From Ostreococcus lucimarinus (Eukaryota), in NCBI GenBank assembly GCA_000092065.1, contig CP000585.1: a stretch of 64,000 bases of DNA; one strand, given 5' to 3'. The position numbers were made by a program, and so were the translations under genes. The notes under the pieces are model-generated. The model ran no database searches. It was not told the DNA's origin and saw only the letters and a program-made list of their open reading frames with translations. The first letter of the stretch is position 1, and the number at the start of each line of letters is the position of its first letter. Positions 8,624 to 19,781 of the stretch are shown here, piece after piece.

Positions 8624-10111
8624 CTAGAGTAACATCGTCATCGGATCTTCTAAATAACACTTGAAGGATTGAAGCCACTGCGCCCCCACGGCTCCATCCA
8701 CGACGCGATGATCGCAGCTCAAAGTCGCGCTCATTACCAAGACTTCCTCGTAGCCGCCCTCTGCGTTCTTGACGACTTCCTTTCTAGCTCCGCCGACGGC
8801 GAGGATCGCCGCTTGCGGCGGGTTTACGATCGCAGCGAAGTTCTTCACGCCGAACATGCCGAGGTTGCTAATGGTAAACGTGCCTCCAGTCATGTCCTGG
8901 GGCGTGAGAGAGCCGCTGCGCGCGCGGCCGGCGAGCGACTTGACTTCGGCGCTGATAGACTTCAACCCCAGGCAGCACGCAGATCGCACGATGGGCACCA
9001 TCAGCCCGCGCTCGGTCTGCACCGCTACAGAAATATCAGCTTTTTTGTACTTGCGAATCTTATCGCCCAACCAGCTGGCGTTCACGTCCGGCACCGCGAG
9101 CAACGCCTTGGCGCTCGCCTTGACGATGAAATCGTTCACGCTAATCTTCGCCCCTTCCGCAGCCTTATCATCAGCGAGCTGCTTGTTCAACGTTTCACGA
9201 ATCCCCATCATGTTATCCAAGCGCACGTCTACGGTGAGATAGAAATGCGGCAGTTGCTGCTTGCTTTCCGTCAAGCGCTCCGCGGTGACGCGCTTGATGG
9301 CGCTCACGCTCACGTCTTCGAAATCCGGGAAAAACTTGGACAACGGATGTTCCGCCACAACCGTGTGCGTCACCGCCTCACTCGCGCTCGACGCGCGCGC
9401 CGTGAGCACGTCCTCGGCGATCACGCGCCCGTTCGGCCCACTCCCGCTCACGGTCTCCAATCGCACGCCTCGTTCCTCGGCCAACCGTCTCGCCAGCGGC
9501 GACGCGAACACCCGTTCCCCGCTCGCGCGCGCGCTCATCCGCGCCGTCGCGCGCGTCGACGCCCTCACCACCGGCATCGTCACCGCCGTCTCCACCGCGC
9601 TCTTCGCCGGTTCCGTCGTCACCGTCTCCGTCGCTTTATAATCCTTAAACGCCGCCACCGCGCTCGCCTCCTCGCACATCACGCACACCGGCGTCCCCAC
9701 CTCCACGTCCGTCGCTCCCTCGGGCACCAGGATCGCCGCCAGGTACCCATCATCCGTCGCTTCCATCGCCATCGTCGCCTTATCCGTCTCCACGTCCGCG
9801 ATCGCGTCGCCGGCTTTGATTTCATCGCCGATCGCGCGATGCCACCGCGCGATCCCACCGCGCTCCATCGTCGGCGACAGCGCCGGCATCGGCAGCACGA
9901 CGTGCTCGGGGAGCGTCGACGACGACGACGCGAATCGCGCGCGCGCGGACGCGTCGAGCGCGGCGCGCGCGGCGCGCGCGCGCGAGGACGCGTCGACGGT
10001 CGCGCGCGCGAACGTCGAGGCGCGCGCGCGCGACGACGACGACGACGACGACGACGCCGGCGCGGGCGCGCGCGCGGCGGCGACGACGGCGCGAGCGAGC
10101 GCGCGACGCAT
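8624..10111 (-). CDS. Dihydrolipoamide acetyltransferase (E2 component of pyruvate dehydrogenase complex), mitochondrial-type
   Basis: The lipoyl domain is LPMPALSPTMERGGIARW...IADVETDKATMAMEATDDGYLAAILV. The E3-binding domain is VFASPLARRLAEERGVRLETVSGSGPNGRVIAEDV. The catalytic-domain motif is SCDHRVVDGAVGAQWL. The N-terminus is a Ser/Ala/Arg-rich presequence. Confidence 0.85.
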   Translation of the reverse strand: MRRALARAVVAAARAPAPASSSSSSSSRARASTFARATVDASSRARAARAALDASARARFASSSSTLPEHVVLPMPALSPTMERGGIARWHRAIGDEIKAGDAIADVETDKATMAMEATDDGYLAAILVPEGATDVEVGTPVCVMCEEASAVAAFKDYKATETVTTEPAKSAVETAVTMPVVRASTRATARMSARASGERVFASPLARRLAEERGVRLETVSGSGPNGRVIAEDVLTARASSASEAVTHTVVAEHPLSKFFPDFEDVSVSAIKRVTAERLTESKQQLPHFYLTVDVRLDNMMGIRETLNKQLADDKAAEGAKISVNDFIVKASAKALLAVPDVNASWLGDKIRKYKKADISVAVQTERGLMVPIVRSACCLGLKSISAEVKSLAGRARSGSLTPQDMTGGTFTISNLGMFGVKNFAAIVNPPQAAILAVGGARKEVVKNAEGGYEEVLVMSATLSCDHRVVDGAVGAQWLQSFKCYLEDPMTMLL

Positions 10112-10377
10112 CGCGCGCGCGTCGCGGCGAGCGTCGCTCGGGCGACGCGCGAGGACGTGTGCGGACGACGCGTCGGGCGCGCGTCGCGTCGAGGGCTACT
10201 CCCGGGTGTTTCGGGCGCGCGCGTCGTCGCGCGCCGCGCGTCCGACGGCGCGGCGCGATGATCGATCGAATCTGCGCGAGGAATACGCATCGCTAACTAC
10301 GCTAGAGCTAATCTACGGTCGTCGCGAACGCGCGCGCGTCGCGCGACGATTCGGCGGCGGCGCGCGCCGCGAGCGCG

Positions 10378-10989
10378 CTACGCGTCGGCGACGGCGCGGC
10401 GACCCGGCGGTAACGCCGGTTTCTTCCGCACTATCGGCGGCGCCGGCGGGTCGTCGTTCGCGCGCACGCCGTCACCGTCGCCGTCGCGCGTCCCTCTGGG
10501 AGCCGCCGCCGCGGGCGCCGCGCGAAGCGTCGTCGCCGCCAACCGTCTCGCGACTTCGGACGCCGGCGTCGCCGCCGCGCCCACGCGCACCGTCACCGCC
10601 TCGCTCGGATCGAACTCCACGAATTTCGGCGCCCTCGCCGCGACGTCGGACGTCGACCGCGCGTCGAGGTCGACGCGCGCGTCCCGCGCCGCGCGTTCCC
10701 GCGTCCCGACCGCGTCGCCGCCGCCGCGCGCCGCCGCGCGCACCTCTCCCGCGTTCGCCAGCGCCACCCCACTCGTCGTCCGCGCCAGCGCCGCGCGCGC
10801 GACCGCGACCGTCGCGCCGCGCTCGACGTCCTCGATCGTCGCCACCCCGGTCCAGCGCTCGCGCTCGACGACGACGACCTCACCGTCACCCGTCGCGAGC
10901 CGCAGTTTGAGCGTGCGACTCGCGCGCGCGTCCTCGCGCGCGCGCGCGCCGCGCGCGACGTCGCGCGCGTCCACGACGCGCAGCGCGAC

Positions 10990-11026
<37 letters not shown>

Positions 11027-11049
11027 CGCGCGACGCCCGACGGACGCAT
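10378..11049 (-). CDS. Hypothetical protein (possibly spurious ORF in a GC-rich divergent intergenic region)
   Basis: A 223-aa ORF lies between the E2 start (10111) and the SUN-gene start (11098). It begins with (GD)n and carries one mildly conserved-looking block (KFVEFDPSEAVTVRV). I recognise no family, and the compositional bias here makes any frame look coding. Confidence 0.2.
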
Positions 11050-11097
11050 TGTGCGGCCGACCGACCGACCGACCGACGCGTCACAACGCCGCGCGCG

Positions 11098-11247
11098 ATG
11101 CCCGCACGCGCGCCGGCGAGGACGCGCGCGCCGGCGACGAGCGCGGAGACGCGCGCGAAAAGCGCGACGCGCGCGCGCGGAGACGCGCGCGACACGCGCG
11201 GCGCGGACGCGCGCGATGATGATTTAAACGAAAAAGATGACCGTTCG

Positions 11248-11280
<33 letters not shown>

Positions 11281-14200
11281 TGCGACGACGCGTGGGGCGT
11301 CGCGCGCGGCGAGCGAGACGTGCGCGCGGGAATGATACGCGTGCGGAGCACGGTGCCGCTGATCGTGAGCACGCTGTGCGTGGTGGTGACGGCGCTCATC
11401 GCGGTGTGCGCGCAGAGCTGGCACGTGCGCGAGACGGCGATGCGGTTGGCGAGCGTGCGATTGAGCGCGACGAGCGTGAAGCTCGGACCGACGACGAGAC
11501 GGTTGACAGCGCTCGAGGATGCGGTGAGGAGATTGGAGAGCGAGAAGGCGAGCGTGCGCGCGGTGGATGGGGTGAAGGCGACGGTGGAGGCGGAGCGCGC
11601 GGCGAACGCGGCGAACGCGGCGACGACGACGACGGACGCGAAGGTCGTCAAGACGGAGATGAAGGCGGAGTTGAAATCGGTTTTGGCGCAGATTGATGCG
11701 TTGAGTAAGCGACAAAATAGTTTCGTGACGACCGCGGAGCTTAAGAAGAGCAGTGGCGCTCTCAAGGCGGAGCTCGCGGAACTCGAAAAGACGGCCGCGG
11801 CGCTCGAAAAGAAGCAAGCGAACTTCGCGGCCAAGACGGAGCTCGCGTCGCTCGAGAAGACCACCGCGGCGCTCGACAAGGGACAAGCCAATTTCGTCAC
11901 CAAAGCGCAGCTTCAAAAGGTGAACGTCGCGAACGATCTCGCACTGTCTGCTGAGCGCTTACGAATCGACGACGCCATCAAGGAGGCCAAGTCGCTTCGA
12001 GACGCCATCGACGCCGTATCCAAGAGCTTGGCGCAGATTGATGCGTTGAGTAAGCGACAAAATAGTTTCGTGACGACCGCGGAGCTTAAGAAGAGCAGTG
12101 GCGCTCTCAAGGCGGAGCTCGCGGAACTCGAAAAGACGGCCGCGGCGCTCGAAAAGAAGCAAGCGAACTTCGCGGCCAAGACGGAGCTCGCGTCGCTCGA
12201 GAAGACCACCGCGGCGCTCGACAAGGGACAAGCCAATTTCGTCACCAAAGCGCAGCTTCAAAAGGTGAACGTCGCGAACGATCTCGCACTGTCTGCTGAG
12301 CGCTTACGAATCGACGACGCCATCAAGGAGGCCAAGTCGCTTCGAGACGCCATCGACGCCGTATCCAAGAGCTTGGCGCAGATTGATGCGTTGAGTAAGC
12401 GACAAAATAGTTTCGTGACGACCGCGGAGCTTAAGAAGAGCAGTGGCGCTCTCAAGGCGGAGCTCGCGGAACTCGAAAAGACGGCCGCGGCGCTCGAAAA
12501 GAAGCAAGCGAACTTCGCGGCCAAGACGGAGCTCGCGTCGCTCGAGAAGACCACCGCGGCGCTCGACAAGGGACAAGCCAATTTCGTCACCAAAGCGCAG
12601 CTTCAAAAGGTGAACGTCGCGAACGATCTCGCACTGTCTGCTGAGCGCTTACGAATCGACGACGCCATCAAGGAGGCCAAGTCGCTTCGAGACGCCATCG
12701 ACGCCGTATCCAAGAGCTTGGCGCAGATTGATGCGTTGAGTAAGCGACAAAATAGTTTCGTGACGACCGCGGAGCTTAAGAAGAGCAGTGGCGCTCTCAA
12801 GGCGGAGCTCGCGGAACTCGAAAAGACGGCCGCGGCGCTCGAAAAGAAGCAAGCGAACTTCGCGGCCAAGACGGAGCTCGCGTCGCTCGAGAAGACCACC
12901 GCGGCGCTCGACAAGGGACAAGCCAATTTCGTCACCAAAGCGCAGCTTCAAAAGGTGAACGTCGCGAACGATCTCGCACTGTCTGCTGAGCGCTTACGAA
13001 TCGACGACGCCATCAAGGAGGCCAAGTCGCTTCGAGACGCCATCGACGCCGTATCCAAGAGCCAGGACGTCTTCATCACGAATACTACTCTCCGACGAGT
13101 GGAGTCACAAATCGAAGCGCTGAAGAAGATGCAAGCAAAGAAGGGATTCTTCTCAACACGGCCGAAAGGGCCGGTCGTTTCCGACGAGCAGATTGCGATG
13201 CTCGAGGCCACGGTTGCTACTTTTGCGACACATTTGGCGGATTTGGAAAAGAACCAAGCCGACTTCGTGACCACAGCGCAACTGCAAAAGTTCGAGGGCG
13301 CTTCGGAGGAAATCAAGTCGCTCCAGAGGGAAATTCACGTTGTTTCCAAGAAGCAAGCCAACTACGTCAGCGTGGCGCAATTACAAAAGCTCGAAGTGGT
13401 GACGGATGAAATTAAATCGCTGCAGAGTGAGATTTCGGCGCTCGCTAAGACGCAAGACGAGTTTGCTATTCTCAGCGCGAGTCTTAAGGATGTTGAGAGT
13501 AAGATCGCGGCGTTGGCGGATGGTAAGAAGAAGACCGGGCTCCTCTCTAAGCTTTCGAAGAAGACAGACACCAAGGTCACCAACAAGCAACTTGTTGAGC
13601 TCGAGAACGCTGTCGCGACGTTGGAGAAGACTCAGACGAAATTCGCTTCGCTTGCGAGTTCACAGATCAGCACGTTGGAGTCTACTCTTGATGCGATTTC
13701 GCAGCAGCAATCCAGTGCGCTCACAGCTGCTGATTTGAAGAGTATTCAAAAGGCCATCACGGCGCTGGAGAAGAGTCAGGAAAGTTTCGCGACGACTGCA
13801 CAGCTACAGAAAGTGGATGCATCTCGAGAGATCAAGGCTTTGGAAGAAGCTTTAGCGGAGATTCTACAGAGTCAGCATTCGTTTGCGAACTCGACTGCCG
13901 TCGAAGAGCTTGAGACGAAAGTCATGGCACTCGAAGCTCGACAAAACGAAAAGCGCGGTGGGATGTTCAAGCGAAGCGCGAGCACCGACACCTCTGTCAC
14001 CAATAAGCAACTCAAGGCTTTAGAAGACACCATCGCGGCCCTGACGAAGAGTCAAGCGGACTTCGCCACGGTTACCCAGCTGAAAGAAAGTGCGCAGGCG
14101 CTTTCGCAACAGCAAGCCGGCGCGCTTACGGCGGCTGACTTGAAGGGCATTCAAAAAGCAGTCGCGTCGCTAGAAAAGAGTCAGAACGGTTTCGCGACGA

Positions 14201-16128
14201 CGGCGCAATTACAAAAGCTCGAAGTGGTGACAGATGAAATTAAATCGCTGCAGAGTGAGATTTCGGCGCTCGCTAAGACGCAAGACGAGTTTGCTATTCT
14301 CAGCGCGAGTCTTAAGGATGTTGAGAGTAAGATCGCGGCGTTGGCGGATGGTAAGAAGAAGACCGGGCTCCTCTCTAAGCTTTCGAAGAAGACAGACACC
14401 AAGGTCACCAACAAGCAACTCAAGGCTCTAGAAGACGCCATCGCGGCTCTGACGAAGAGTCAAGCGGACTTCGCCACGGTTACCCAGCTGAAAGAAAGTG
14501 CGCAGGCGCTTTCGCAACAGCAAGCCGGCGCGCTTACGGCGGCTGACTTGAAGGGCATTCAAAAAGCAGTCGCGTCGCTAGAAAAGAGTCAGAACGGTTT
14601 CGCGACGACGGCGCAATTACAAAAGCTCGAAGTGGTGACAGATGAAATTAAATCGCTGCAGAGTGAGATTTCGGCGCTCGCTAAGACGCAAGACGAGTTT
14701 GCTATTCTCAGCGCGAGTCTTAAGGATGTTGAGAGTAAGATCGCGGCGTTGGCGGATGGTAAGAAGAAGACCGGGCTCCTCTCTAAGCTTTCGAAGAAGA
14801 CAGACACCAAGGTCACCAACAAGCAACTCAAGGCTCTAGAAGACGCCATCGCGGCTCTGACGAAGAGTCAAGCGGACTTCGCCACGGTTACCCAGCTGAA
14901 AGAAAGTGCGCAGGCGCTTTCGCAACAGCAAGCCGGCGCGCTTACGGCGGCTGACTTGAAGGGCATTCAAAAAGCAGTCGCGTCGCTAGAAAAGAGTCAG
15001 AACGGTTTCGCGACGACGGCGCAATTACAAAAGCTCGAAGTGGTGACAGATGAAATTAAATCGCTGCAGAGTGAGATTTCGGCGCTCGCTAAGACGCAAG
15101 ACGAGTTTGCTATTCTCAGCGCGAGTCTTAAGGATGTTGAGAGTAAGATCGCGGCGTTGGCGGATGGTAAGAAGAAGACCGGGCTCCTCTCTAAGCTTTC
15201 GAAGAAGACAGACACCAAGGTCACCAACAAGCAACTCAAGGCTCTAGAAGACGCCATCGCGGCTCTGACGAAGAGTCAAGCGGACTTCGCCACGGTTACC
15301 CAGCTGAAAAAGGTTGCCGCCACGTTGGATGCGTTGAAAAACGTGCACGACAATTATGCGACGACGAAACTTGTGAAGAACTTGGAACTCAAGCTGAACC
15401 AGGTGATCAAAACGAGCGGGGGGCTGTCGACGACGCAGACAAATTTGGTGGAGTTAGAGCAAAGAGCGATGGAGCGCGTTGAGAGTTATATTAAAACAAT
15501 CCCGAAAGATACCTCGAGAAAGCTCACGAAACACATCGAGGAGGCTTCGAGTTTGTGGTTTGCGGACAGAACTGGAAGGCAGGACTTCGCGCTCGCTTCA
15601 GGTGGCGGGCGCGTCGTCGGTCACTCTCAGCTTTCGCCGTTTGTAGGCCGTGGCGACGGTCCCATCACGTCGGTGCTTTCGTTCCTTCAATCCGGAGTGC
15701 ATCCGAAGAGCGACGAGTGGTTACTCACGCCGTCTTTGGAGCAACCAGGGGATTGTATCGCGTTGCATTCGTCGACCGGTTATGTTGATGTTCGTTTGCG
15801 TCAGTCTGTGAAAGTGGACGCGGTCACGCTCGAGCACGCGAATAGCTTGAACGCGTACGACTTGCACAGCGCGCCACGAGATGTACAAGTATACGGTTGG
15901 CACGCACGCAAGAAGAGTTGCAAGCATAGCAAACCGCCCAAGTCGTTGATTCCTCTCGGCAACTACACGTACAGTATCAACCGCGGAAGCGTACAAACTT
16001 TCGACGTGGTGTCACCGCAGACCGTCGACCATGTGCGTCTAGTGGTGAAGAACAATCAAGGGCACCAGAAGTGGACGTGCCTGTACCGGTTCCGAGTACA
16101 CGGCGTGCCAGAACGAGTCGAAGCGTGA
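11098..16128 (+). CDS. Giant coiled-coil membrane protein with a C-terminal SUN (Sad1/UNC-84)-like domain; a predicted inner-nuclear-membrane/LINC-type protein
   Basis: This is a single 1676-aa ORF. Its N-terminus is an Arg/Asp-rich low-complexity stretch. A single hydrophobic span (PLIVSTLCVVVTALIAVCA) sits near residue 90. About 1300 aa of heptad-rich sequence rich in Ala, Leu, Lys, Glu and Gln follows, built from tandem repeats. The C-terminal roughly 190 aa are globular and end ...QGHQKWTCLYRFRVHGVPE. This resembles SUN-domain termini (...YRxRVHG) and the architecture resembles SUN proteins. Confidence 0.65.
11683..13062 (+). repeat. 345-bp tandem repeat, 4 nucleotide-identical copies (115-aa coiled-coil unit) inside the SUN-like gene
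   Basis: The string ttggcgcagattgatgcgttgagtaagcgacaaaatag recurs at about 11683, 12028, 12373 and 12718. Three identical 111-aa antisense ORFs spaced exactly 345 bp apart in the track (11913, 12258, 12603) confirm nucleotide identity. The unit encodes AQIDALSKRQNSFVTTAELKK...KEAKSLRDAIDAVSKSL. Confidence 0.9.
13370..15300 (+). repeat. 408-bp tandem repeat: three nucleotide-identical copies plus one diverged leading copy (136-aa coiled-coil unit) inside the SUN-like gene
   Basis: Identical antisense ORFs recur at 14181, 14589 and 14997 (period 408 bp). The unit encodes ...QLQKLEVVTDEIKSLQSEISALAKTQDEFAILSASLKDVESKIAALADGKKKTGLLSKLSKKTDTKVTNKQLKALEDAIAALTKSQADFATVTQLKESAQALSQQQAGALTAADLKGIQKAVASLEKSQNGFATTA. 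A diverged copy starts at about 13370. Confidence 0.9.
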
Positions 16129-16387: not shown

Positions 16388-16879
<492 letters not shown>

Positions 16880-17762
16880 TCACGCAAAACATTCGAGCGT
16901 CCGTCAGTCTCCCGTACCCACATCGCGTCGCGTTTCGCTCTCAACCGCCCCCGCGACGTCGACGCCGCGCGCGCGCGACGCTCGACCGCCCCCGTCGCTC
17001 GTCCCATCGCCGCCCACGACGCCATCGACCCCACATTCGCGCGCATATCATCCAGCGATAATACACATCCCACGCCCACGCCCCATCGCCTCCCCTCGCG
17101 CGTCGGCGCCCATCGAGCCCTCCCATTTCCAACGCCACAGATCGAGCGCCAACGATCCAACGCGTGCGCGCACGATCAACGCCCTCTCGCGTTCCTCGAT
17201 CACCCGTTCGACCCGATCGCGCGCGCGACGCGCGCGACGAAATCTTCCCGCGCGATTTCCGCCGTCCGAGCCGACGCGCGACGCGCGACGCGCGACGTGG
17301 GCGGCGATTCCGCGCGACAATCCGAATCGCGCGATTATGCGCTGGAATCGTCCATCGTCGATCGTCGTCCGCGTCTCGTCGACGCGTCGCGATCGCGGCG
17401 CGCGCGCGGTATCCGCGGGCGCATCAAAACGCGCGCGCGTACCATGTCGTGTGATTTCGCGAAGTCGCGTCGCGGTGTGCGCGCGCGGGGGCGCGTGGTC
17501 GGAGTGTCGTCACCGCGCGCGCGAAACGATCTGATGGGCGTTTGTGGTATTAAATATGTAAATGTACATTTCAACCAACGCGTCGTTATACATAGAGCTG
17601 TCGTGTGATTTTATATGCACATCGCTCGTGATAAATTTTGTCGGTTTGAACGGTCGACGACGACAGCTCGAACCGCTCGAGCGACGCGCGCCAGAGCGAC
17701 GCGGGCGCGGGCGCGAACGCCAACGAGGAGCGACGGAAGGGAAGACGACGCGCTTTCGGACG

Positions 17763-19781
17763 ATGCCGAAAAAGCCGACGAATCTGAACGCGAAAGGGGA
17801 CAAAAATCTGACGCAAAAGTCTCCGGCGGAATTTTTCCAAGACAACAAAGGCATCGCTGGGTTCGAAAACGCGGGGAAATCGCTGTACACGACGCTTCGA
17901 GAGTTCATCGAGAACGCGTTGGATGCGGCGGAAGCGATCGGGACGCTGCCGGAGATCGATATCGCGGTGGAGGAGGTGTCGGTGTCTCAATACGAGAGCC
18001 TCATCGGGCTCAAGGCGCACGTGCGGTTGGACGACGAGCTGTACGCGGATTTTGAGAGCGATAAGGCGAAGGCAAAGCGGTTGGCGCAAGAGGCGAAAAA
18101 GGCGGCGAAAGCGGCGTCGGCGGCGTCGAAGCGAGGGGGAGGTGGGAAGCGGGATCAGGCGAAATGTTTTTATAAGATTACCGTCAAGGACAACGGGAAG
18201 GGCATGCAACACGAGGACATTCCGAACATGTTGGGACGGGTTTTGAGTGGTACCAAGTACGGGGTGCGACAAACGCGAGGGAAATTCGGACTCGGGTCGA
18301 AAATGGCGTTGATTTGGTCCAAGCAAACCACAGGATTGCCCATTCGCATTCGAAGCGCGTTGCCGAACCAGTCGTTCATCTCCGAGTACGCGTTAGACAT
18401 CGACATCGAGAAGAACGAGCCAAACATTCATAAGGAGGCGAAATTACCCAATGACGATAAGTGGCACGGTGCGGAACTGTCGGTGACCATCGAAGGTAAC
18501 TGGACGACGTACAGGCAATACGTGTTGTCGTATTTGAGACAGCTCGCCATCGTCACGCCGTACGCGCAGTTTCGGTTTAGATTTGTTACCTCTGCGGCGA
18601 CGACGTCGACGGCGAAAGATATCGATATCGTATTTAGACGCCGTACCGATATCATGCCGGCGCTTCCCACGGTGACGAAGCATCACCCTTCGGCGGCGAA
18701 GGAGAACATGCTCTTGATAAAGGATTTACTTTCGCAGACGCGTGAGAAGAATTTGCTCAACTTTTTGCATAAAGAGTTCACGTGCATCAACAAGGACCAT
18801 TCTTCTCGCCTGATTCAAGAACTCGGCTACGGTTTCGATACGGACATGCACCCGTCCGAGGTGACGGATAAGCAAGCGACGAGAATACAGCAGCTTTTGG
18901 CGGACGCGCGCTTCGACGATCCAGACGGCTCGTGCCTTTCGCCGGCGGGCGAATACAACCTGCGTTTAGGCATCATGAAGGAGCTCGGCCCAGAGTGGAT
19001 CGCATCATTTTGCGCTCCTGCTTTAGCTTGCGGTGGACACCCGCTCGTCGTCGAAGCTTGCGTTTCGCTCGGCGGTCGCGAAGTGAAACCGGGATTCAAC
19101 GTGTTTCGCTTCGCAAATAGAATTCCGCTCCTCTTTGAAGGCGGTAACGACGTCGTTACGAGATGCGTGCAGCGCTTGAACTGGAACACGTATAAGATTG
19201 ACAAGAACAACGATAAGATTGGCGTCTTCGTCTCCATCGTGTCCACAAAAATCCCTTTCAAAGGCACGTCCAAGGAGTACATCGGGGATGAAAACAACGA
19301 AATCGCCGACGCCGTCGACAAGGCAATCAAGCAGTGCGCCTTGCAGCTTCGAGGGAAGATTGTCCGCGCGCAAGTGGCGAAAGATCGGAAAGCTCGCAAA
19401 AAGCAACTCGCCAAGTACATTCCTGATGTGGCGCGCGCAGTCTTCGCGATGCTTGCGGCCGCCGCGGACGCGGACGAGCCGCCATCGAAACGCGCTCGCG
19501 TCGGCGCCGCGTTATGGAAGGTGGACGAAAAGTGGGAGACGGACGTTTTGGAGCGGGCGAGAGAAGGTGAAGTGAGTGAAGCCGTGCTCAGGGCAAAGCT
19601 TGAAGAGCACGTGCAACGAAGTGATCACGAACAAGCGCTGGAATTTGCCATGCAAAACAACAAGGATGGCTTAAGCGAACTCATGTACTTGGTGCCCAAG
19701 ACGCCCGAGCACGAGTACCTTCCCGAGATTCGAAGCGGATCGTGTGCGTTTAGATTTCTCAAGGCGGCTGAATTGCGATGA
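17763..19781 (+). CDS. TOP6B: DNA topoisomerase VI subunit B (TOP6B), Bergerat-fold ATPase
   Basis: The start is at MPKKPTNLNAKGD. The ATPase region is SPAEFFQDNKGIAGFENAGKSLYTTLREFIENALDAAE (an ExxNxxD-type ATP-binding motif). Downstream come ...YKITVKDNGKGM and the transducer-domain block FRFANRIPLLFEGGNDV, typical of TopoVI-B. Confidence 0.85.
   Translation: MPKKPTNLNAKGDKNLTQKSPAEFFQDNKGIAGFENAGKSLYTTLREFIENALDAAEAIGTLPEIDIAVEEVSVSQYESLIGLKAHVRLDDELYADFESDKAKAKRLAQEAKKAAKAASAASKRGGGGKRDQAKCFYKITVKDNGKGMQHEDIPNMLGRVLSGTKYGVRQTRGKFGLGSKMALIWSKQTTGLPIRIRSALPNQSFISEYALDIDIEKNEPNIHKEAKLPNDDKWHGAELSVTIEGNWTTYRQYVLSYLRQLAIVTPYAQFRFRFVTSAATTSTAKDIDIVFRRRTDIMPALPTVTKHHPSAAKENMLLIKDLLSQTREKNLLNFLHKEFTCINKDHSSRLIQELGYGFDTDMHPSEVTDKQATRIQQLLADARFDDPDGSCLSPAGEYNLRLGIMKELGPEWIASFCAPALACGGHPLVVEACVSLGGREVKPGFNVFRFANRIPLLFEGGNDVVTRCVQRLNWNTYKIDKNNDKIGVFVSIVSTKIPFKGTSKEYIGDENNEIADAVDKAIKQCALQLRGKIVRAQVAKDRKARKKQLAKYIPDVARAVFAMLAAAADADEPPSKRARVGAALWKVDEKWETDVLERAREGEVSEAVLRAKLEEHVQRSDHEQALEFAMQNNKDGLSELMYLVPKTPEHEYLPEIRSGSCAFRFLKAAELR

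Follow-up and report, generated by a model that had tools for sequence, protein, structure and literature searches.

In the 64,000-nucleotide stretch of Ostreococcus lucimarinus DNA analysed here (contig CP000585.1 of GenBank assembly GCA_000092065.1; hereafter the window), a 5-kb single-exon gene encodes a product that, by each feature that can be judged from its sequence, is a true C-terminal-SUN (SUN1/2-type) protein, with a stalk between membrane anchor and SUN domain about nine times the usual length. The gene is one stop-free open reading frame (ORF) from ATG to stop, 1676 codons plus the stop codon, lying exactly at 11098..16128 (+) as read from the ORF list and translation, and its extent and that of its 1676-amino-acid (aa) product are those given in the original prediction. 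The best explanation of the data is a SUN protein of the LINC type (linker of nucleoskeleton and cytoskeleton) with a long, helical, hinged alpha/beta stalk, a reading that we consider quite probable for the identity and architecture of the protein and less so for its details. It is a long-stalk variant within the ordinary SUN family, and what sets it apart is the length of the stalk, its recent perfect tandem amplification and its nonad architecture.

The SUN domain and the membrane anchor

The SUN identity that the original prediction had proposed for the C-terminal domain is borne out by Pfam, by the PDB sequences of SUN1/SUN2 and by Foldseek, all of which agree. Residues 1540-1670 matched Pfam Sad1_UNC (PF07738) in hmmscan with an E value of 1.1e-25 and a score of 90.7 bits, the curated cut-off being 22, and a phmmer search of PDB sequences returned SUN1/SUN2 chains (human and mouse) only, aligned across the whole domain at E values of 2e-20 to 2e-18 and sharing the motifs PG-x-C, TC-x-YRFRVHG, TLEH and SAP-[KR]-D. 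An AlphaFold2 (AF2) model of residues 1380-1676, built on a seven-sequence alignment, had a mean predicted local distance difference test score (pLDDT) of 58, with values of 70-90 in the beta-sandwich core; the 12 best PDB matches that Foldseek found with this model were all SUN1/SUN2 (E 1e-15 to 1e-12), the next being discoidin/CBM32-type domains at about 1e-7. RFRVHG ends 7 residues short of the stop codon, which puts the SUN domain at the extreme C-terminus. The ending is SUN-type, as had been said, but the true end of the product, ...KWTCLYRFRVHGVPERVEA*, lies 4 residues further than had been stated.

Residues were numbered after human SUN2 by way of 4dxt_A, in which position i is SUN2 residue 519+i, a relation verified at C563 and C601 in the alignment. 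The counterparts of SUN2 C601 and C705 are C1553 and C1661, and those of H628, S641 and Y707 are H1580, S1591 and Y1663; the KASH-lid segment is aligned with gaps of 1-2 residues only. As far as alignment can tell, both the KASH-pocket residues and the cysteines of the intradomain disulfide of human SUN2 are retained. The roles in SUN2 of the C601-C705 disulfide, H628, S641, Y707 and the KASH lid are said to have been described by Sosa and colleagues in 2012. Gln1511 occupies the place of SUN2 C563, the cysteine of the metazoan SUN-KASH disulfide; that cysteine is known to be non-essential and not universally conserved, being absent from other non-metazoan or testis SUNs. An extra cysteine, C1608, sits in an insertion (KKSCKHSKPPK) that human SUN2 lacks.

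The architecture is that of C-terminal-SUN proteins and not of the mid-SUN type, with a single transmembrane (TM) helix, a heptad stalk and helices predicted up to the SUN domain. The one TM helix near the N-terminus that had been proposed corresponds to a single hydropathy peak at residues ~85-107: Kyte-Doolittle 19-residue windows above 1.6 start only at residues 79-92, peaking at 2.65 with VPLIVSTLCVVVTALIAVC at residue 86, and over the whole protein there was no other window above 1.6 and no hydrophobic segment past residue 107, hence none of the C-terminal TM helices that mid-SUNs have. The helix is conserved in three orthologues (P0068, P0069 and P0070), and the short, charged stretch of residues 1-84 is predicted to be nucleoplasmic, from the topology of the SUN family.

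A stalk several times the usual length

To set the stalk among its relatives we used the 150 best of 2074 matches (E <= 1e-3) from an exhaustive HMMER search of 1.84 billion representatives, of which the 93 complete proteins that have a TM helix upstream of a C-terminal SUN motif served for stalk length. The median TM-to-SUN distance among these 93 was 150 aa (interquartile range 130-266), and the maximum outside the Ostreococcus group was about 596; by the same crude measure the distance in the window protein, whose stalk has ~1370 residues, is ~1386 aa, which substantiates the original prediction that the rod is unusually long. For SUN1 and SUN2, stalks of ~300 aa (~45 nm) have been reported, for SUN3-5 80-130 aa, and for Schizosaccharomyces pombe Sad1 ~130 aa. 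SUN proteins are conserved in Ostreococcus, and a survey (PMC7982736) recorded one C-terminal-SUN and one mid-SUN protein in O. lucimarinus, with no mention of a long stalk or of repeats; in the literature that we searched there was no description of the stalk of this protein.

Fully extended, the stalk would measure ~204 nm at 0.1485 nm per residue, and ~93 nm in the most collapsed form found in other assemblies. Cryo-tomography of O. tauri placed the nuclear membranes 18-100 nm apart, in an open envelope, interrupted by gaps hundreds of nm across, that continues into sheets of the endoplasmic reticulum (ER). A fully extended stalk standing perpendicular to the membranes does not fit 18-100 nm, and it must therefore bend at its linkers, tilt, or run in the plane of the lumen.

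Tandem arrays and copy number

The rod had been described as repeat-built, and two perfect arrays found by Tandem Repeats Finder (TRF) and direct comparison agree with this: Array A, of 4.0 copies of a 345-bp unit, and Array B, of 3.1 copies of a 408-bp unit. Mismatches were zero in both, between all pairs of A copies and along an 861-bp perfect self-match of Array B at period 408. Each A unit contains three nonad (beta-layer-like) motifs at spacings of 34, 23 and 58 residues (6, 2 and 2 mod 7), and each B unit joins a ~116-aa helical segment to a ~20-aa basic linker. According to TRF, Array B is the young part, at one end, of an older array of 4.7 copies (13374-15309, 83% matches), and a 69-bp (23-aa) sub-period lies inside the units.

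The arrays are real, and stalk-unit duplication recurs in this clade. Exactly two perfect A units were present in each of two independent scaffolds free of undetermined bases (N), L019 and L020, and one in L017, while the sister-strain contig L021 carried ~2.2 B units that are genuinely resolved, because one single-nucleotide polymorphism (SNP) separates the copies. The orthologue P0068 and the locus L005 have a duplicated unit of their own, in 2 and 3 copies, respectively. The stalk would have grown by repeated tandem duplication of the 115-aa and 136-aa units through unequal crossing-over, the latest rounds leaving 4 and 3.1 identical copies in numbers that vary among assemblies, strains and species, and its length would continue to drift in the same way.

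The length of 1676 aa could instead be inflated by assembly, the identical copies being an artefact of repeat resolution and the real protein measuring ~920-1190 aa. Identity is 100% among the four A copies and likewise among the 3.1 B copies, and the 1676-aa protein itself is missing from a collection of 15 billion proteins. In the other same-species assemblies there were 1 or 2 A units and 1-2 B units, with proteins of 919-1188 aa, or else the arrays coincided with N gaps or contig ends; all 16 of the metagenome loci first examined showed a single A-unit marker or a break at the arrays, and the gene was broken or collapsed in every short-read assembly examined. However, perfect tandem repeats of 345 and 408 bp are typically collapsed or broken by short-read assemblers, and gaps of 100 N exactly at both arrays point to unresolved multicopy sequence. 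The two A copies in two independent scaffolds and the SNP-marked 2.2 B copies of the sister strain also argue against inflation, and even the most collapsed form has a stalk of ~629 aa, exceeding all comparators outside the clade. We consider inflation by assembly rather unlikely, and the exact copy number, and hence the length of 1676 aa, may be polymorphic or under-assembled in the other assemblies. The loci L001-L016 are short-read metagenome scaffolds with 100-N gaps or contig ends exactly at both arrays.

Heptad periodicity and a recurrent nonad motif

The stalk is rich in Ala, Lys, Leu, Ser, Thr, Glu and Gln, and the rod contains four prolines. Over its 756 non-redundant residues, the Viterbi heptad score was 236, compared with 154.5 +/- 9.6 for shuffled sequences (z 8.5). 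This periodicity upholds the coiled coil of the original prediction but not its description as uninterrupted: the best path over these residues had 31 register breaks, one per ~24 residues, 55 breaks occurred over the full rod (residues 110-1480), and six basic non-helical or Gly/Pro-containing linkers split it.

Most of the breaks fell at a recurrent motif, L-x-K-x-Q-x-x-[FY]-[AV]-T-x-x-[QED]-L, with about 39 occurrences including variants such as ALTAADL (4 copies) and VTNKQL (5 copies) that have the same downstream pattern. Strict-pattern spacing misses such variants, and the repeats are non-independent; we used instead a position profile of 57 unique occurrences, drawn from the window protein together with four relatives and aligned on the F/Y residue (position 0), in which positions -3, 0 and +1 were constrained by the search pattern and the rest were free. 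The fraction of hydrophobic residues (Leu, Ile, Val, Met or Phe) was 0.91 at both -10 and -7, 0.84 at +6, 0.77 at +9 and 0.54 at +13, and in between stood Gln at -3 (47/57), Ala or Val at +1 (52/57), Thr or Ser at +2 (44/57) and Gln, Asp or Glu at +5 (34/57). The core spacing is 3-4-3-6-3-4, in which heptad phase is held on both sides with exactly two residues added at F-A/V-T, and the 23-residue sub-repeat amounts to two heptads plus one nonad. Strict matches to the motif numbered 32, versus 4.0 +/- 2.0 in shuffled sequences; the corresponding counts were 11 versus 2.3 in P0068 and 7 versus 1.6 in P0069, and there were 0 occurrences in the short-stalk relatives P0072 and P0073. An AF2 monomer of 600 stalk residues, run without an alignment and used for helix boundaries only, was all-helical, and 8 of its 12 internal helix breaks fell on the motif, in a model of low confidence (pLDDT 50, predicted template modelling score 0.20).

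In structures solved by Hartmann et al. (2016, PMC4786415), two residues inserted into a heptad make a nonad, a-b-c-[b1 b2 b3]-e-f-g, in which residues b1-b3 leave the helix and, in parallel trimers, build a beta-layer. Its sequence follows the consensus [aliphatic]-A-T-K-[polar]-[DE], with b3, an N-capping T, S, D or N, receiving a bond back from g; insertions of 6 residues are likewise a mark of beta-layer fibres. The motif here, [F/Y]-[A/V]-[T/S]-x-[A/S/T]-[Q/D/E], agrees with this consensus at beta2 and beta3 but is aromatic at beta1 and has mostly Gln at g, in a pattern that also fits a generic capping box. SUN domains act as trimers that the coiled coil before them holds together, which makes a trimeric alpha/beta coiled coil the simplest reading, and we infer that the stalk is a parallel trimeric alpha/beta coiled coil with beta-layers. 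In such a stalk, short segments of 2-4 heptads would be joined by about 39 nonads of the form a-b-c-[F/Y-A/V-T]-e-f-g, with Gln at a, Gln, Glu or Asp at g, and Leu at the next a.

The linkers recur once per 136-aa unit, and in their consensus Gly/Ser is followed by two hydrophobic residues, of which Phe is frequent, and then by Lys/Arg. All relatives have equivalents (SSGYFKRATD, RGGFFKKDD, AGLFKRDK, GGVLKKG), those of P0068, P0069 and P0070 taking the form G-[FLM]-[FL]-x-[KR]. Six linkers would cut the predicted parallel trimeric fibre into one ~575-aa segment (~85 nm) and several of ~116 aa (~17 nm), and they might be hinges or membrane-contact sites.

It is also conceivable that the helices of the stalk fold back into antiparallel bundles, like those of spectrin or the autoinhibitory CC1/CC2 of SUN2. 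The stalk would then reach only part of 200 nm and might be accommodated in the lumen; a fully extended rod does not fit 18-100 nm. The helices are short (about 20-35 residues), each opening with the capping-box motif, Gly precedes some of the motifs (KGQANF, SQNGF, QAGALT), and a mouse SUN2 CC2-SUN structure has been solved (5ed8). Most junctions, however, have 0-3 non-helical residues without Gly or Pro, which is too short for chain reversal, and the retention of phase on both sides with exactly two added residues across 57 unique instances is needed by a straight alpha/beta coiled coil and not by a hairpin. Folding back appears to us fairly unlikely.

Proposed function and its difficulties

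As a LINC-type protein, the product would reside in the inner of the two nuclear membranes, its N-terminus facing the nucleoplasm, a localisation suggested by family membership, would trimerise through its stalk, and would present a luminal SUN trimer that clamps the C-terminal tails of outer-membrane partners to form a bridge.

Several points weigh against the reading of the protein as a LINC-type bridge with a trimeric alpha/beta stalk. The arrangement of 4 A and 3.1 B copies was matched by no other assembly of the species examined. The beta-layer assignment is a reading of the sequence pattern, and T-x-x-[QED]-L equally describes a generic N-capping box of helices; several breaks are neither +2 nor +6, with +3, +4 and +5 occurring as well. 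A Pfam search of the whole protein (E <= 1) gave no significant match for the stalk and nothing above family cut-offs, and there is no solved stalk homologue, because the 115-aa and 136-aa units returned only chance matches among PDB sequences (E >= 0.1; designed coiled coils, WbdD, an aminotransferase). Both AF2 models have low confidence, with pLDDT values of 50 (rod) and 58 (C-terminus), and being monomeric they are unable to show a trimer. In chlorophytes the plant KASH and lamin-like families known so far have not been found, and a scan of the window for ORFs with a hydrophobic tail and a short luminal tail gave no KASH-like tail-anchored ORF. Localisation, oligomeric state and partner are predictions from sequence. 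The three hydrophobic-tail ORFs that the scan returned have no KASH-type ending, and all are apparently spurious.

The protein may not be a nuclear-envelope LINC component at all, and may act as a luminal scaffold or spacer, comparable to Climp63, in the ER sheets continuous with the outer nuclear membrane, or in a KASH-independent ancestral SUN function. There is no known KASH family in chlorophytes, and reviewers have raised a KASH-independent ancestral role for SUN proteins; in O. tauri the open envelope, whose gaps measure hundreds of nm, is contiguous with ER sheets, and the length of the stalk exceeds the width of the lumen. Against this, the equivalents of the KASH-pocket residues H628, S641 and Y707, the lid-length insertion and the C601-C705 cysteines are conserved, and these residues would argue for retained peptide binding; the architecture, moreover, is C-terminal-SUN and not mid-SUN. 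We regard a role outside LINC bridges as unlikely.

Tethering of the nucleus to the basal body, which the original prediction had raised as meriting attention, is not supported: Ostreococcus is non-flagellate, and cells of O. tauri show only one or two microtubules.

One gene, its orthologues and database fragments

Rod and SUN domain lie in one ORF, and three collinear orthologues preserve the arrangement. Contigs free of N from the same species have single ORFs with the same N- and C-terminus, of 919 aa (P0067, L017/L018), 1059, 1077 and 1174 aa, and the sister strain has a single ORF of 1187/1188 aa. The complete, collinear orthologues come from three more distant lineages (P0068, 1060 aa; P0069, 877 aa; P0070, 632 aa) and are 59-67% identical over the C-terminal query region, with a common layout of MP..R-rich N-terminus, TM helix, conserved juxtamembrane segment, rod and SUN domain. 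The start MP(A/P)RA is kept in P0067, P0236 and P0068. Because gaps and contig ends fall at the arrays, the gene is represented in public collections mostly by pieces of 267-390 aa or by shortened forms; the names that the Joint Genome Institute gives to pieces of this protein read 'SUN domain-containing protein 1/2', and word-index searches and cluster listings gave no NCBI-sourced relative. A division of rod and SUN domain between two genes or transcripts joined only by ORF read-through, as metagenome gene callers' 'SUN' products of 267-390 aa might suggest, is extremely improbable and was rejected, since those products begin directly past 100-N scaffold gaps within both arrays while the N-free contigs carry undivided ORFs of 919-1188 aa with the same ends and the orthologues of other species are collinear. 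These alternatives (inflated copy number, fold-back, ER scaffold, two transcripts) are not mutually exclusive with the main identification.

The representative search also returned P0071, a protein of 2451 aa with at least 16 tandem copies of a partial metazoan-like SUN C-terminal fragment (…FRYIKFQVESNWGNPEYTCVYRVQ…), which probably reflects an artefact of assembly or of the gene model, or else an odd amplification of an exon.

Features of the gene and its neighbourhood

Table 1. Coordinates in the window of the SUN gene, its parts and the neighbouring genes.
Feature	Coordinates	Strand	Basis
Complete single-exon gene, C-terminal SUN-domain membrane protein	11098..16128	+	ORF list, translation; start motif in relatives
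N-terminal region, residues 1-84, low-complexity, Arg/Ala-rich then poly-Asp run	11098..11349	+	Translation
Sole predicted TM helix, residues ~85-107 (VPLIVSTLCVVVTALIAVCAQSW)	11350..11418	+	Kyte-Doolittle
Luminal juxtamembrane segment, residues 108-195 (HVRETAMRLASVRLSATSVKLGPTTRRLTALEDAVRRLE...)	11419..11682	+	P0068, P0069, P0070 sequences
Array A, 4.0 perfect copies of 345-bp (115-aa) unit, residues 196-655	11683..13062	+	TRF, direct comparison
Older diverged 136-aa-type units, residues 656-981, three basic Gly/Pro linkers	13063..14040	+	TRF; present in P0237, P0236
Linker 1, residues 683-695 (GFFSTRPKGPVVS; KKGFFSTRPKGPVVS), basic, hydrophobic, non-helical, two of the rod's four prolines	13144..13182	+	Sequence, AF2 helix boundaries
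Linker 2, residues 809-828 (GKKKTGLLSKLSKKTDTKVT)	13522..13581	+	Sequence
Variant linker, residues 954-968 (RGGMFKRSASTDTSVT)	13957-14001	+	Sequence
Array B, 3.1 perfect copies of 408-bp (136-aa) unit, residues 982-1404	14041..15309	+	TRF, direct comparison
Linker 2 copies (GKKKTGLLSKLSKKTDTKVT)	14350-14409, 14758-14817, 15166-15225	+	Sequence
Last stalk motifs and two SUN-proximal helices, residues 1405-1479 (…NLVELEQRAMERVESYIKTIPKD…)	15310..15534	+	AF2 helices H71-86, H91-109 (query from residue 1380)
SUN domain, residues 1480-1672	15535..16113	+	Pfam, PDB alignments, residue positions, Foldseek
Pyruvate dehydrogenase E2 (upstream neighbour)	8627-10111	-	
Centrin gene	16388-16834	-	
Topoisomerase VI subunit B homologue, 739 aa (next + strand gene downstream)	17562-19781	+	

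Outside the SUN domain, the best-conserved part across four lineages appears by eye to be the first ~45 residues of the juxtamembrane segment (residues 108-155, 11419-11560; QSWHVRETAMRLASVRLSATSVKLGPTTRRLTALEDAVRRLE), with the pattern QSWH..TAM.LASVR.SAT.V.L.P.T.RL in the orthologues; such conservation suggests a specific interaction beside the membrane. The predicted luminal part, of ~1570 residues, contains just three N-x-S/T sequons (residues 662, 931 and 1622).

Guanine-plus-cytosine (GC) content is 0.77-0.79 at 10000-11000, 5' of the SUN gene, and 0.69 across its first 200 codons, with 0.88 at third codon positions. The region 10000-11500, comprising the divergent intergenic region between pyruvate dehydrogenase E2 (PDH-E2) and SUN and the first ~130 SUN codons, is 73-79% GC with many short CG-rich tandem repeats; metagenome gene calls of 106 aa and 221-223 aa in it (e.g. 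10378-11049, -) have no Pfam match and are apparently spurious. The PDH-E2 product is identical at 421/421 residues to XP_001418025.1 of O. lucimarinus CCE9901, which identifies the DNA as that of O. lucimarinus or a strain nearly identical to it.

Centrin, which the original prediction named as the next gene downstream and took to be a probable coincidence, lies on the opposite strand. Its adjacency offers no functional hint, because the genes converge and synteny in close relatives extends over the entire block: the order TrmO, PDH-E2, SUN, centrin, topoisomerase VI-B is repeated in same-species metagenome scaffolds and also, over the part that those shorter contigs cover, in the more distant L005 and L006. 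The conserved core of centrin starts without an in-frame ATG, and two in-frame stops lie just upstream of it in the window; in strain L017 this stretch is open and a product of 230 aa is called, and the true N-terminus of centrin is probably on an upstream exon. For the topoisomerase VI-B product, a Topo-VIb_trans Pfam domain was found on the equivalent product of related loci.

Possible significance

Taken further, the stalk might be a trimeric fibre of ~39 beta-layers that works as a hinged, concertina-like or in-plane luminal scaffold, its length tuned rapidly by unequal crossing-over and its action possibly KASH-independent, a proposal that is speculative and, in our estimation, unlikely. 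If it were true, this would be the first alpha/beta fibre in a eukaryotic nuclear-envelope or ER-luminal protein and by far the longest SUN stalk; at 2-10 times the perinuclear gap of Ostreococcus the stalk would not be a perpendicular ruler, and its rigid units of ~17 nm between basic linkers would be near the 18-nm minimum membrane spacing. The stalk is a testable eukaryotic candidate for an alpha/beta coiled coil, a class so far mainly prokaryotic, viral and mitochondrial (PMC4786415). Protein length varies from 919 to 1676 aa between strains and from 632 to 1060 aa between related lineages, and the host genus, with its thin cells, suits whole-cell cryo-tomography, by which envelope spacing has already been measured.

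Comparison with known systems

With human and mouse SUN1 and SUN2 (4DXT, 4DXR, 6R15, 5ED8), the window protein shares the type II layout of N-terminus, TM helix, helical stalk and C-terminal SUN domain, the last aligned end to end at about 27-29% identity, with C601-C705, H628, S641, Y707 and the lid-length segment in common. It differs from them in its stalk of ~1370 rather than ~300 aa, made of perfect tandem repeats with nonad motifs, in the replacement of C563 by Gln, and in a nucleoplasmic domain of only 84 aa. By architecture it falls in the same clade as the plant and algal C-terminal SUNs of the Arabidopsis SUN1/2 class. P0072 and P0073, its next relatives outside the Ostreococcus group, are 44-46% identical in the SUN region, but have 524-575 aa and short stalks; compared with relatives of this type, total length here is about three times and the stalk about 5-9 times greater.

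Alpha/beta coiled coils such as Tcar0761 of Thermosinus, Actinobacillus OMP100 and DUF1640/MCUR1 share the insertion of two residues at [hydrophobic]-A/V-T-x-x-[Q/E/D], followed by a hydrophobic a, and the regular recurrence of the motif; the Tcar0761 repeat MATKDDIAN (PMC4786415) is similar to QANFVTKAQL here, and the trimeric state expected of such coils suits a SUN trimer. In contrast to them, the stalk has F/Y in place of an aliphatic residue at beta1 and Q more commonly than D/E at g, and sequence homology to them was not detectable.

Whether a SUN stalk determines how far apart the nuclear membranes lie is open. The idea of a 'ruler' fits SUN2 (~45 nm), but Caenorhabditis elegans UNC-84, which shares with the present protein a long luminal linker between TM helix and SUN domain that was proposed to set membrane spacing, bore a shortening by 300 residues without narrowing of the envelope. 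The O. lucimarinus gene provides the opposite natural experiment, a canonical SUN domain on an over-long, length-variable stalk that is several times too long for the lumen.

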